Below, piece by piece: positions 14,850 through 18,600 of a stretch of DNA of 32,000 nt; within the stretch, counting starts at the first letter, position 1, and each line of letters opens with the position of its first letter. Source of the DNA: Candidatus Saccharimonadota bacterium. Its GTDB lineage: Bacteria; Patescibacteriota; Microgenomatia; UBA1406; GWC2-37-13. Made by a program: the position numbers and the translations under genes. The stretch covers positions 720,001-752,000 of the forward strand of contig MGBH01000001.1 in assembly GCA_001790095.1 (NCBI GenBank). The letters are read 5' to 3'. The notes under the pieces were generated by a model. That model ran no database searches and was not told the origin of the DNA. It saw only the letters and a list, made by a program, of their open reading frames with translations.

Positions 14850-15797
14850 TTATACCTTAACTTCCCACAGCTGCTCTACGTCACAGATTGAATCAGCACC
14901 GGAAAAAAGCATAGCTAGTCTATCTATCCCTAGACCACATCCGGCATAAGAACCTTTTTGAAGGGCCTGTGATGCAGCAAGGAACTCTTCATCTATGGGT
15001 TGTGAACTACTTCCTCTTTGTTGCTTTTCTTTTTCGAAAACTTTTCTCATTGATGAGACATCAGTGTTTTCTGTATTTCCATTGGCAATCTCAATTTTAT
15101 CGATATAAAGTTCAAAACGTTCGGCCAAATATGGCTTATCTTGTTGTGGTTTGCAAAGCGGAGATAGAATCGCTGGGTAATCCGTAAGAAATACGGGTCC
15201 AGATGGAAGATTTTGTTCAATATCGTTTACAAATACTTGGTCCCAAAGCCCCCGCCATGTAGCGTGATTTGTCTTGTAATTTTTCTTTCTTGCGATGTCA
15301 AATAGTACACTTTCCTGTTTCAAAACTTCCATAAGGCTTACCCCCATATTACGTTTAAACACATCCTGCAAAGATACTATTTCCCAAGAGTGTTGAGTTG
15401 ACTTGATAATTTGCGACTCTTTGCCTAATGTAGACTGGATGCTTAAGATCAGCTGTTTGGTGTCCTTCATTATGCTCAAATAATCTGCATCGTGTCGATA
15501 CCATTCTAGCATCAGAAACTCTGGGATATGCCAAGACCCGCTTTTTTCCAGATTTCTAAACGACTTGGCAAACGCAAAACAATTACCCATTCCACGGGAT
15601 AGCATACGCTTTAATCCCCTTTCAGGAGATAATGAAAGAAAATACTCCCCAGTTGAAAACGGATATAGATTTGGTTCATGAGGTACGGTCTTATTTAAAA
15701 CTGGCACGATAACTTCGTGAAAGTTCTGTTCATAAAAAAACTTCCGTGCAGACCTGATAATTTCTTCTCTGATAAAAACTGGTTTGAAATTGATCAT
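14850..15797 (-). CDS. epmA: EF-P lysine ligase EpmA (GenX/PoxA; truncated class II LysRS paralogue)
   Basis: Collinear with E. coli EpmA: REEIIRSARKFFYEQNFHEV (motif 1 region), SPERGLKRML, AKSFRNLEKSGSWHIPEFLMLEWYR (motif 2), AERFELYIDKIEIANG, and GCGLGIDRLAMLFSG (motif 3). At 315 aa it has no anticodon-binding domain. Confidence 0.85.
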   Translation of the reverse strand: MINFKPVFIREEIIRSARKFFYEQNFHEVIVPVLNKTVPHEPNLYPFSTGEYFLSLSPERGLKRMLSRGMGNCFAFAKSFRNLEKSGSWHIPEFLMLEWYRHDADYLSIMKDTKQLILSIQSTLGKESQIIKSTQHSWEIVSLQDVFKRNMGVSLMEVLKQESVLFDIARKKNYKTNHATWRGLWDQVFVNDIEQNLPSGPVFLTDYPAILSPLCKPQQDKPYLAERFELYIDKIEIANGNTENTDVSSMRKVFEKEKQQRGSSSQPIDEEFLAASQALQKGSYAGCGLGIDRLAMLFSGADSICDVEQLWEVKV

Positions 15798-15799
15798 TT

Positions 15800-16696
15800 T
15801 TATGAAGACGACGATTGTTTTTTATGTAATAAAATAACTTCTTTCAATCCACACATAAATCCAGGCTGACTACACCCCATACCTAGTCCTCTTATTCTAC
15901 ATTTCAATTGATTAATTAATTGTAACGGAGTATCATCTATCTTTCCTAGAGCCTCAAATCCTTCACAACATCCATATACAGTACCATCCGATGCGAGCGC
16001 TACTTGATAGCATCCAAGTTCTTTGGGAGGAAATACTTTTTTCCTATGCTTCCAAAGCTCTCTCATTTCATCACCCGTAAGATAATCAAACCCTTGAGTA
16101 GTGCCGACTATGTTTGACTTGGGGTGTTGTTTCAAATATTCAGCTGGTTTTCGAGGATGAAAGGTTATATCAATTGGACCTATCTGATCATGTATTTGTG
16201 CCTCAAACTGATCAATATTTGGCAAATTTTGTTTGGTTACGATCGAAAAAATCTCCGTATGGAATCCTAACTTTTTTGCCTTTTTTAAAAAAATAATACT
16301 TTTATCGTATTGACCTGTTCCTCTATTACTGTCATGATACTCTCTTGATCCATCAAGGGAAACAATGAGGTTTATCATACCCGGATTGGCAAGTTCTTTC
16401 AGTCGATCGATAGTCCCATTGGTAATGCATTGGATGTAAATACCTCTCTTTACCAACCTATTAACCAGTTTTGGAAAGTAAGAAAGCGCCATCACTTCTC
16501 CCCCGCAAAATGTGATAACCTTGACTTCTACTACCTTTGCATATCTGTCAACAAAGTCAAAAATCTGATGTTCCGTCAATATCGATGAGGTTTTCTTTGT
16601 ATAACAGATTTTGCAATGCAGGTTGCATTTTTCAAGTGGGTTGATGTAAAGATGGTGTAGTACATTTTTTAAATGTGCCGTCCTATTATATTTCAT
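15800..16696 (-). CDS. Radical SAM enzyme with a C-terminal SPASM/twitch-like Cys cluster
   Basis: CNLHCKICY (Cx3Cx2C), GGEVMAL (GGE motif), and C-terminal GCYQVALASDGTVYGCCEG...CRIRGLGMGCSQPGFMCG. Its stop is 2 nt from the epmA start. A TATAAT (16706-16711, minus strand) lies 9 nt upstream of its ATG. Confidence 0.8.
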   Translation of the reverse strand: MKYNRTAHLKNVLHHLYINPLEKCNLHCKICYTKKTSSILTEHQIFDFVDRYAKVVEVKVITFCGGEVMALSYFPKLVNRLVKRGIYIQCITNGTIDRLKELANPGMINLIVSLDGSREYHDSNRGTGQYDKSIIFLKKAKKLGFHTEIFSIVTKQNLPNIDQFEAQIHDQIGPIDITFHPRKPAEYLKQHPKSNIVGTTQGFDYLTGDEMRELWKHRKKVFPPKELGCYQVALASDGTVYGCCEGFEALGKIDDTPLQLINQLKCRIRGLGMGCSQPGFMCGLKEVILLHKKQSSSS

Positions 16697-16735: not shown

Positions 16736-17797
16736 TTAGAGGGAAGGGCTTTTCTCATCTTCATATATACGTATAAAGGAGTTCATGAGGAGAAACATCA
16801 CACAGCTTAGCACCGAAGTAACAATCAAAAAAATGTCTGGAATGTTTCGTTCGATGATTCCATTACCTAGAGTAGGTTTTGAGGAAAAAAATACCGTAAA
16901 GATCCGATCCGCAAAGGTAAAAGATGAAATAGAGATAAAGAGGTCTTCTTTCTTTGTCATACCCACTGTTTCATTGCTGTCTTCGTAAAACGCTATATTT
17001 TTTGGCAGCATATCCTCACTCAATTTTCCATCATATACTGCATAGCTCATTGGGTTGGTGCTATCCTTTAACAGACCGTCAAAAAGAGAGTCTGCTTTCA
17101 AGACAGAGACGACAAACCCCTTTAATTGTTGTTGTTTTTTTTCTTTTGTATCGGCTGCAGTTATGCTACCTGAGTAAATAGGTTGAACAATAAGCATACG
17201 TTTTAGATTAAACAGTTGTAGCTCAGGAGTAACGATGATGTCTCCGGAATCACGCGCCTGGTCAAAATAAGTATTTAATGTTGGATCCAATCCTATATCG
17301 TTACCAAAAAAGTTTTTAAACGTCTCATGAGGGACCATGTAATTGACAACGTAGTATTCTTTCTTTTCCTCCGAAACATGGATATTGAAAAAGGGATAAC
17401 CGTAAGGAGTAGTTGCTTTGTCTTGTCGCACCTTATCCACAAAGCTGTCTTTATCCAAAGCAGTCACTTTTGCCACATAAAGTATCCCTTCCATACCTTC
17501 ACCCACATCCTCTTCTTTGATCGCTTGAAAATAATCGTCAAATTCTTTTCTCGTCATGGTATCATCGATACGAAACCACCGCTTGCCCTCTTTCACGTTC
17601 TGAACATATCCTTTGATCCGATCTTGCATGAGTGTCTTAAGGAATTGACTCTCACTCATAAAACGCTCTCTTACATTATTCATGACTGCAGTACGCATGA
17701 CCTGCCAAGAGAAAAAATTCATCATCAATAAAATAAGAAGAGCTATGAGGCTTTTGAGAAAATCTTTTCGAATGGTTGAATATATATGTTCACTCAT
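16736..17797 (-). CDS. CHASE-like extracytoplasmic sensor domain protein bracketed by two TM helices, with no output domain
   Basis: TM1 (LIALLILLMMNFF), then a ~270-aa domain matching the CHASE pattern (N-terminal long helix ...RERFMSESQFLKTLMQDRIKGY; ...EYYVVNYMVPHE...GNDIGLDP...ARDSGDIIVTPELQL...LIVQPIY), then TM2 (IFLIVTSVLSCVMFLLM). The protein ends 15 aa later. Confidence 0.6.
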   Translation of the reverse strand: MSEHIYSTIRKDFLKSLIALLILLMMNFFSWQVMRTAVMNNVRERFMSESQFLKTLMQDRIKGYVQNVKEGKRWFRIDDTMTRKEFDDYFQAIKEEDVGEGMEGILYVAKVTALDKDSFVDKVRQDKATTPYGYPFFNIHVSEEKKEYYVVNYMVPHETFKNFFGNDIGLDPTLNTYFDQARDSGDIIVTPELQLFNLKRMLIVQPIYSGSITAADTKEKKQQQLKGFVVSVLKADSLFDGLLKDSTNPMSYAVYDGKLSEDMLPKNIAFYEDSNETVGMTKKEDLFISISSFTFADRIFTVFFSSKPTLGNGIIERNIPDIFLIVTSVLSCVMFLLMNSFIRIYEDEKSPSL

Positions 17798-17799
17798 GG

Positions 17800-18600
17800 C
17801 TATTTTAGTTTTTTTTGTAGCTCAAATGGACCCCTGCAACAACTGGTTATAAAAAAGAATAACAATATGCTACTTGCTACAAACATTAAGTCAGCTAAAC
17901 CACCGTTCCAATACGTTCCCAATAACTCTCCATATGTAAATGCATAATCGCCTATTGCCATAAATATAATAGATATGAGAAGCAGCATCATACTGCGCCT
18001 TGCTCTTCCCTCCACGATTTTATAGGTGATGAATGCCAAGATAAACATAAATATATCAAGCATTGGATAGGTGAAGTTGGTAATTGCCTCAACGAGGGTA
18101 AAACCACTTGCAATCGGAATACTTTTAAATACAAAGTAAACGACTCCATACCCAACTAATATGAAAAAAAAGGACTCAAAAATATTTCGACTTGTGATGG
18201 GGGCATCCGAATACTCCATAAGACGCCAACAACCCCAGCATATGAGCATAATCATAAAGATGTAAAAGGCATCAGCGATCGATGGAAAAGGAACCTCAAC
18301 ATGTAGCACAATATTGTAATACGCCCAGATCATGTCAGCTATCCCCCAAAAAAAAGCAGCCAGCACAAAATAATAGAGAGTTCTTCGAAAGATAGCATTT
18401 GCAGCCTGCTTTTTTATGAAGAAAAAACCAACGATTGCTCCAAGAAGGTGAAGAGAACTACTCCCCACATTGTATGCATCATTCCAGATCGTTTCTTTGT
18501 TTGGTATGACTTGAAGATAAATCCCCCAAGCAAGTATAAAGATGGCATAGATTACATATATCGCAATCCCCAAGTACTTTTTGATTACATCCCCGCTCAT
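17800..18600 (-). CDS. Polytopic (7-8 TM) membrane protein, function unknown
   Basis: 266 aa, almost entirely hydrophobic helices. Its stop is 2 nt from the CHASE gene start. Confidence 0.65.
   Translation of the reverse strand: MSGDVIKKYLGIAIYVIYAIFILAWGIYLQVIPNKETIWNDAYNVGSSSLHLLGAIVGFFFIKKQAANAIFRRTLYYFVLAAFFWGIADMIWAYYNIVLHVEVPFPSIADAFYIFMIMLICWGCWRLMEYSDAPITSRNIFESFFFILVGYGVVYFVFKSIPIASGFTLVEAITNFTYPMLDIFMFILAFITYKIVEGRARRSMMLLLISIIFMAIGDYAFTYGELLGTYWNGGLADLMFVASSILLFFFITSCCRGPFELQKKLK

Follow-up and report, generated by a model that had tools for sequence, protein, structure and literature searches.

A radical SAM protein paired with an EpmA-family ligase in Patescibacteria: a candidate cassette for EF-P modification

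The stretch of DNA analyzed here (the window: 32,000 nucleotides, positions 720,001 to 752,000 of contig MGBH01000001.1, assembly GCA_001790095.1, Candidatus Saccharimonadota bacterium) carries two adjacent genes, one encoding a radical S-adenosylmethionine (SAM) protein, hereafter rSAM, and the other a ligase of the EpmA family. We consider it likely that the two genes form a cassette that modifies the loop-tip lysine of elongation factor P (EF-P) and replaces the lone EpmA; the ligase would attach a lysine-like α-amino acid and the rSAM would contribute a radical reaction of which the lone-EpmA route has no need. The pairing of the genes, their co-inheritance, their exclusivity with the lone EpmA, the occasional linkage to efp, the fold class of the rSAM and the signatures of the ligase pocket are observations, while EF-P as the acceptor, the type of donor and the order of steps are what we infer. 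In the established β-lysylation of EF-P, EpmA works with EpmB, a pyridoxal phosphate (PLP)-dependent radical SAM aminomutase of the KamA family. The cassette points to a modification route so far undescribed, in which an EpmA-type ligase whose donor pocket is altered would work alongside a new partner of the radical SAM class. Below, G000 denotes the genome carrying the window (a single contig of 1.217 Mb, 98% complete, with relatives labelled Candidatus Roizmanbacteria, of the candidate phyla radiation, CPR), other G and L numbers denote genomes and loci compared, and g and f numbers genera and families.

Inheritance of the pair and its relation to the lone EpmA

The earlier note on this DNA, made from the sequence alone, drew attention to the adjacency of the two genes and proposed that its conservation in relatives, as well as the co-occurrence of the two families across genomes, be checked. 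The pairing proved to be conserved at every level of sampling. Among 40 close relatives each clear rSAM orthologue is directly followed by a ligase of 49–62% identity, and in the family as a whole (189 genomes, 33 of them rSAM-positive) the ligase is directly adjacent in 31 of the 33, the other two rSAM genes being cut by the end of a contig. A metagenome scan with the profile of the core rSAM family confirmed 362 relatives, and 80 loci were kept; at 59 of these the ligase comes directly after the rSAM in the same orientation (gap of −19 to +157 nucleotides), 13 have no downstream room and 8 have room but no ligase, i.e., the pair is present at 59 of 67 informative loci. In a sample of the class (401 genomes) the rSAM was found in 37 genomes from at least eight families, mostly next to the ligase, and 70 genomes had a ligase match (this tally, and nothing else here, includes G652, which is flagged as unpublished). 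The same adjacency is seen in most rSAM-positive genomes of seven further families, and in G412, which belongs to another class, an EpmA of 281.7 bits adjoins the rSAM (40% identity) in divergent orientation. Two loci of other form were also met: G549 carries two complete copies of the cassette on different contigs (C31 and C13), with an estimated contamination of 6%, and may be a mixed bin, and at L117:4983-6941 a member of the rSAM family is convergent with a RimK-like ATP-grasp ligase, with no EpmA-like ligase.

The rSAM and the ligase also diverge together (Mantel r = 0.72 for 63 pairs, with 0 of 999 permutations as high). The flanking contexts of the pair are many and different and no other neighbour is broadly conserved; genes for GT2 and GT4 glycosyltransferases, uppP, NUDIX, BipA and Obg neighbour it in single lineages only. 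The adjacency is far beyond chance. Incidental synteny of two genes without a functional link, for which only the general compactness of CPR genomes can be brought forward, is therefore very improbable and effectively refuted by the adjacency counts and the co-divergence, the pair being kept in eight or more families and also in another class, with two gene orders and many flanking contexts.

The probable target is indicated by the gene that the pair excludes. Relatives without the rSAM have a different EpmA-like gene (about 335 amino acids, 29–38% identity to the window ligase), which is part of a conserved block of dnaK, dnaJ, epmA, efp, a 207-aa gene and radA. The block recurs in G000 and in a further five genomes with the cassette, but there dnaJ adjoins efp with no epmA between them, and no relics of the lone epmA were detected in the dnaJ–efp gaps of cassette genomes (best E = 0.94). 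Within the family the cassette-type ligase occurs in about 34 genomes and the lone type in about 100; no genome with both types was found among the 189 of the family or the 401 of the class sample, and in the latter each genome with an EpmA-family match has exactly one. Seven genera (g1, g352, g10, g366, g15, g376 and g389) hold both kinds of genome. Since the two ligase forms never co-occur though at least seven genera hold both, the lone EpmA has most probably given way to the cassette in the modification of EF-P. It is mainly this replacement pattern that leads us to assign EF-P as the target, and because the lone and the cassette forms exclude each other, the same cellular role is ascribed to both.

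A search of G000 for efp and for the residue at its loop tip, which the earlier note had recommended, yielded a single gene away from the cassette (G000:C1:180239-180784; L001:1489-2055), with the loop ...SPGKGSA... and Lys at the tip. All six cassette genomes compared share an identical loop, as do most of the aligned genomes with a lone EpmA. At some loci efp is linked to the pair: it directly follows the pair in L133 and L135, lies 1.3–2.3 kb downstream in L104 and L110, and stands divergently beside it in G895, at a place where relatives of the family have the lone epmA.

The ligase and the radical SAM protein

The ligase has the catalytic core of a lysyl-tRNA synthetase (LysRS) of class II without the anticodon-binding domain and is collinear end to end with Salmonella PoxA (3g1z) and E. 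coli GenX (3a5y/3a5z). The earlier note had ascribed to it all three class II motifs and collinearity with E. coli EpmA, which agrees with our alignments: conservation is plain to see in motif 2 (fRN..E..H.PEF) and motif 3 (G.G.G.DRL), and the region of motif 1 is collinear. Its best NCBIfam match is EpmA (TIGR00462), with 237 bits against a cutoff of 286.9; NF006828 gives 199.1 bits (cutoff 264), and class II LysRS models come behind EpmA with 159–176 bits. In a maximum-likelihood tree a split with 99% support in the Shimodaira–Hasegawa-like approximate likelihood ratio test (SH-aLRT) separates a clade of all rSAM-linked ligases, except that of G412, from a clade of the lone efp-adjacent EpmAs, E. 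coli EpmA and LysU.

Two positions of the pocket (E. coli EpmA numbering) follow the same division. The residue at Ala298 is Gly in 64 of 65 rSAM-adjacent ligases and Ala in 21 of 22 lone EpmAs, and that at Phe249 is Asn in 62/65 of the former and aromatic in 21/22 of the latter. The window ligase is of the rSAM-linked type (A type), with Gly at A298 and NGNTEN instead of NGFHEL. rSAM-linked ligases keep the Glu and Tyr by which lysine's terminal amine is held, and the most basal of these ligases (family f165) already have the Gly gate and retain the aromatic pocket residue. Because the score is below the curated cutoff, the gate residue Ala298 is replaced and no EpmB/KamA was found to co-occur with the ligase in G000, we place the gene on a branch of its own within the EpmA family and do not regard it as epmA itself. 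The name epmA given in the earlier note is thus right as to the family, but the canonical gene is excluded by the score, the separate clade, Gly298 and Asn249.

What could such a ligase activate? In E. coli EpmA, Ala298 is described as a backbone gate, and the A298G substitution switches the enzyme from (R)-β-lysine to (S)-α-lysine (bioRxiv 10.64898/2026.07.07.736966). Because Gly occupies this position in the cassette ligase, the donor would be an α-amino acid, and because its terminal amine would still be held by acidic and Tyr residues, it would be lysine-like. By analogy, the cassette ligase is predicted to activate an α-amino acid with a cationic side-chain end and not plain β-lysine, in a pocket which, by inference from its residues, would be more polar than in lysine and β-lysine enzymes. 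In this respect the cassette ligase is a natural counterpart to the engineered A298G α/β switch of EpmA. With LysS and LysU, i.e., class II LysRS, it has in common the catalytic motifs, Gly at the equivalent of EpmA A298 and the Glu and Tyr that bind the lysine amine, but it differs from them in the absence of the anticodon-binding domain and in the change of the pocket Phe to Asn (NGFSEL to NGNTEN). The role of a stand-in for a missing LysRS was rejected, since G000 has a clear class I LysRS (G000:C1:259356-260921; L006); a class II LysRS was not found in G000. The class of LysRS varies within the family, and several relatives have frames of about 690–700 amino acids with a class II LysRS-like core.

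The lone EpmA of Microgenomatia (dnaJ–epmA–efp) shares with the cassette ligase the organisms, the EF-P loop, the ligase superfamily and, on the reading preferred here, the role; it differs by the Ala gate, the aromatic pocket residue and the lack of an rSAM partner, whereas the cassette form is located elsewhere in the genome together with the rSAM. Lone EpmAs directly upstream of efp, with the β-lysine-type Ala gate, are widespread in Microgenomatia (L041-L052, L142-L151 and L162-L163). Yet only 5 of the 40 close relatives searched, and none of the four g508 genomes, have a KamA match above cutoff.

As for the rSAM, the SPASM/twitch character that the earlier note had read from its termini, as opposed to KamA, was borne out by sequence and by fold. 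Its NCBIfam matches are restricted to SPASM/twitch families, cover only their N-terminal cores and score far below every cutoff; the best 25 of the 56 include no KamA model, and the Pfam SPASM model does not match. A profile search of the PDB returned only BlsE, SkfB, YydG, GDGT-MAS, viperin-like proteins and MoaA. The AlphaFold (AF2) model (pLDDT 92.4, pTM 0.90) was compared with known structures by Foldseek and VIA, and near full-length matches were obtained with SuiB (Z 21.7), SkfB (Z 21.1), viperin (Z 20.4), BlsE (Z 20.0) and MoaA (Z 19.2), as well as with anSME over residues 10–298 (Z 20.9), while KamA was not among the 50 structural matches listed. Hence neither sequence nor fold places the protein in the KamA/EpmB families (TIGR00238/TIGR03821).

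The core cluster motif CX3CX2C is formed by C24/C28/C31, and these residues are invariant across the core family together with C64, C229, C243, C244, C275 and C282. In the family alignment C229-x13-C243, with the conserved G238-x4-C243, is a pattern of twitch/SPASM type, and the protein thus combines the core motif with a Cys-rich C-terminal domain of the form C-x9-15-G-x4-C. The pattern C-x13-CC ... C-x8-C-x6-C described in the earlier note is correct for the window protein, but the family consensus is C-x13-CC ... C-x2-C-x6-C (C272, C275 and C282): near its C-terminus (15800-15900) the window protein is devoid of Cys272, kept by at least 90% of close relatives, and has a Cys six residues earlier. 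The rSAM is regarded as a SAM-cleaving [4Fe-4S] enzyme which, judged by the number of cysteines, probably has one auxiliary cluster, twitch-like in type.

With the twitch/SPASM enzymes (SuiB, SkfB, anSME, BtrN-type, BlsE, MoaA and viperin) the rSAM shares the fold over nearly its full length (Z 19–22), the CX3CX2C motif and the C-terminal C-x13-(G-x4)-C ... C-x2-C, but it is at most about 22% identical to any of them, is short (about 290–300 amino acids) and contains no RiPP recognition element (RRE) or other extra domain. Its relatives fall into more than 120 clusters at 90% identity, are 56–67% identical to the query and all come from Patescibacteria/Microgenomates under generic names; only 12 representatives at the 50% level, among 1.8 billion, reach E ≤ 1e-30. 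The family is thus large but narrow. A comparison with a protein atlas gave only generic rSAM/SPASM look-alikes, and no fused forms were seen among longer proteins, which is weak evidence. No described family accommodates this twitch/SPASM-type enzyme, and for the compact, uncharacterised family that it represents the substrate can be narrowed to lysyl-EF-P or a lysine-like amino acid.

The radical step, the acceptor and the competing explanations

The suggestion of the earlier note that the rSAM supplies a different acyl donor stands in part: the rSAM partner and the altered pocket are there, but the step at which the radical chemistry would occur divides our judgement. Tailoring by the rSAM of the residue already attached to EF-P is a serious possibility that falls somewhat short of an even chance. 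It would be in line with the basal f165 ligases, in which the Gly gate coexists with the aromatic pocket residue, with the protein- and peptide-modifying enzymes among the closest folds, and with both exceptions to the coupling (the A-type ligase without the rSAM, and the g508 rSAM beside an Ala-gate EpmA; see below), which it explains more easily. More tentatively, the rSAM may make a non-standard α-amino-acid donor that is selected by the remodelled pocket (Phe249 to Asn). This would fit the restriction of the pocket remodelling to the rSAM-linked clade, the position of the rSAM gene ahead of the ligase gene, the small size of the rSAM, which has no peptide-recognition domain, and the precedent of EpmB, which acts on a free amino acid; transporters adjoin the genes in some lineages, i.e., EamA (here and in G835) and the major facilitator superfamily (MFS; g508). 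A new modification of EF-P, in which the Gly-gate ligase attaches an α-aminoacyl group and the twitch rSAM rewrites it on the protein, for example by epimerisation, amino migration, dehydrogenation or cross-linking, is likewise put forward tentatively; if true, the rSAM would be the first radical SAM enzyme to act directly on a bacterial translation elongation factor.

It is unlikely that the rSAM is a non-homologous replacement of EpmB which makes (R)-β-lysine, or another β-amino acid, from lysine for ordinary β-lysylation. The rSAM does hold the place of EpmB beside an EpmA-family ligase, and it accompanies Ala-gate EpmAs near or above the cutoff in G412 (281.7 bits) and g508 (311–331 bits). 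A genuine epmB elsewhere in the genome, as envisaged in the earlier note, was looked for, and no KamA/EpmB was found in G000 (98% complete), either as a match to TIGR00238 or by tblastn with E. coli EpmB; nor was KamA found in G412, G014, G016, G024, G699 or four g508 genomes, and its absence from G000, G412 and g508 also speaks for the replacement. To our knowledge, however, every radical SAM 2,3-aminomutase depends on PLP and has the KamA fold, to which the SPASM/twitch rSAM has no similarity. The Gly gate of 64/65 rSAM-adjacent ligases further argues against β-lysine, since in E. coli EpmA Gly selects α- over β-lysine, and the change of Phe249 to Asn is unlike a plain side-chain pocket for lysine or β-lysine. 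Long KamA-family genes (435–454-aa frames) do occur in G001, G003 and G004 (L024-L026), two of which are cassette genomes; they never lie beside an EpmA-like gene and probably serve another purpose. Just as improbable is the recruitment of the A-type ligase to another acceptor, for instance part of the cell envelope, some small molecule, a peptide or even the acceptor stem of a tRNA, which was the second alternative of the earlier note. In its favour are the score of the ligase, below the EpmA cutoff, its remodelled pocket, the occurrence of uppP, GT2, EamA and MFS genes beside the pair in several sublineages and the survival in g508 of an rSAM with no ligase linked to it, and overexpressed E. 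coli EpmA A298G is able to charge tRNALys (bioRxiv 10.64898/2026.07.07.736966). Against this stand the strict exclusivity with the efp-adjacent lone EpmA in polymorphic genera, with one EpmA-family gene per genome, and the linkage of efp to the pair in L133, L135, L104, L110 and G895, both of which favour EF-P as the target; moreover, the envelope-gene neighbours appear to be confined to single sublineages, and G000 has its own class I LysRS.

Several observations nevertheless weigh against a cassette that modifies EF-P. The A-type ligase is present without this rSAM family in G628 (100% complete), G601 and G700. In genus g508 and its metagenome relatives the rSAM is flanked by uppP and an MFS transporter and linked to no ligase, and the g508 genomes also carry a lone Ala-gate EpmA next to efp which, with its 311–331 bits, is above the cutoff. 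The coupling is therefore not obligate. The order uppP(bacA)–rSAM–MFS, with glycosyltransferases nearby and no adjoining ligase, was seen in L132, L134, L136, L137, L140, L152 and L153; in the rSAM tree the members of this form make up one derived subclade whose sister is the ligase-linked main clade, and both deep branches of the family are ligase-linked. Beside the pair itself uppP, GT2 glycosyltransferases and transporters recur in some sublineages, and efp is adjacent to it in few loci only. The window ligase does not reach the EpmA cutoff, and in G412 the rSAM is partnered with an Ala-gate ligase. Finally, the gate rule was derived on the E. coli enzyme and might not hold for the cassette ligase.

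Known systems and the layout of the locus

The EpmA/EpmB/EpmC system of E. coli and Salmonella, which carries out (R)-β-lysylation of EF-P Lys34, shares with the cassette the class II LysRS core without the anticodon domain, the PGKG Lys of EF-P and a radical SAM gene beside the ligase gene. The cassette differs from it in that the partner is a SPASM/twitch protein and not a PLP-dependent KamA enzyme, the ligase is below the cutoff, in a separate clade and with Gly298 and Asn249, and no EpmB was found. We know of only three established chemistries of bacterial EF-P modification. Rhamnosylation by EarP, 5-aminopentanolylation by YmfI/YnbB/GsaB and hypusine formation depend on unrelated enzymes, none of which is a twitch/SPASM rSAM, and all these routes extend the loop-tip residue of EF-P/eIF5A (PMC11388002, PMC12856214). 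A 2024 survey (PMC11388002) puts at about half the share of Lys-type EF-Ps for which a modification is not known, and an rSAM partner of this kind is not mentioned in that survey, in a 2026 review (PMC12856214) or in the literature retrieved by full-text searches. The cassette, with eight or more families of Microgenomatia and 362 relatives from metagenomes, is a concrete and widespread candidate for a further EF-P route in Patescibacteria.

In the window the pair belongs to a tight run of five co-directional genes (Table 1), with spacers of 2, 39, 2 and 11 nucleotides. As given in the earlier note, the two genes occupy 14850-16696 with 2 nucleotides between them, and an EamA gene lies 11 nucleotides downstream; both reading frames are on the minus strand, and the 2 nucleotides separate the TAA stop of the rSAM gene from the ATG of the ligase gene.

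Table 1. Genes of the co-directional run in the window, in the order of transcription
Feature	Position	Strand	Basis and remarks
7TM (seven-transmembrane) protein	18600..17800	minus	co-directional, upstream of rSAM
CHASE-domain protein	17797..16736	minus	Pfam CHASE; 39 nt 5′ of rSAM; no output domain
rSAM, 298 aa, twitch/SPASM-like C-terminal Cys-rich domain	16696..15800	minus	PF04055 Radical_SAM, 66.8 bits; NCBIfam, alignments, AF2 model
EpmA-family ligase, 315 aa	15797..14850	minus	PF00152 tRNA-synt_2, 145.7 bits, residues 9-307; TIGR00462; PoxA/GenX alignment; tree
EamA/DMT (drug/metabolite transporter), 283 aa	14838..13987	minus	PF00892; 11 nt 3′ of ligase

A scan of the locus for promoters and terminators gave signals not above those of shuffled controls. 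The 7TM and CHASE genes also precede the pair in G003 and in no other loci examined; they are a genus-level synteny, outside the conserved core. The role of a SAM importer was rejected for EamA, since G000 has its own metK. No EamA gene lies beside the pair in the 80 metagenome loci; in G835, which belongs to another family, an EamA gene (30.6% identity) is likewise located 3′ of the pair, and EamA is possibly an accessory gene outside the conserved core.

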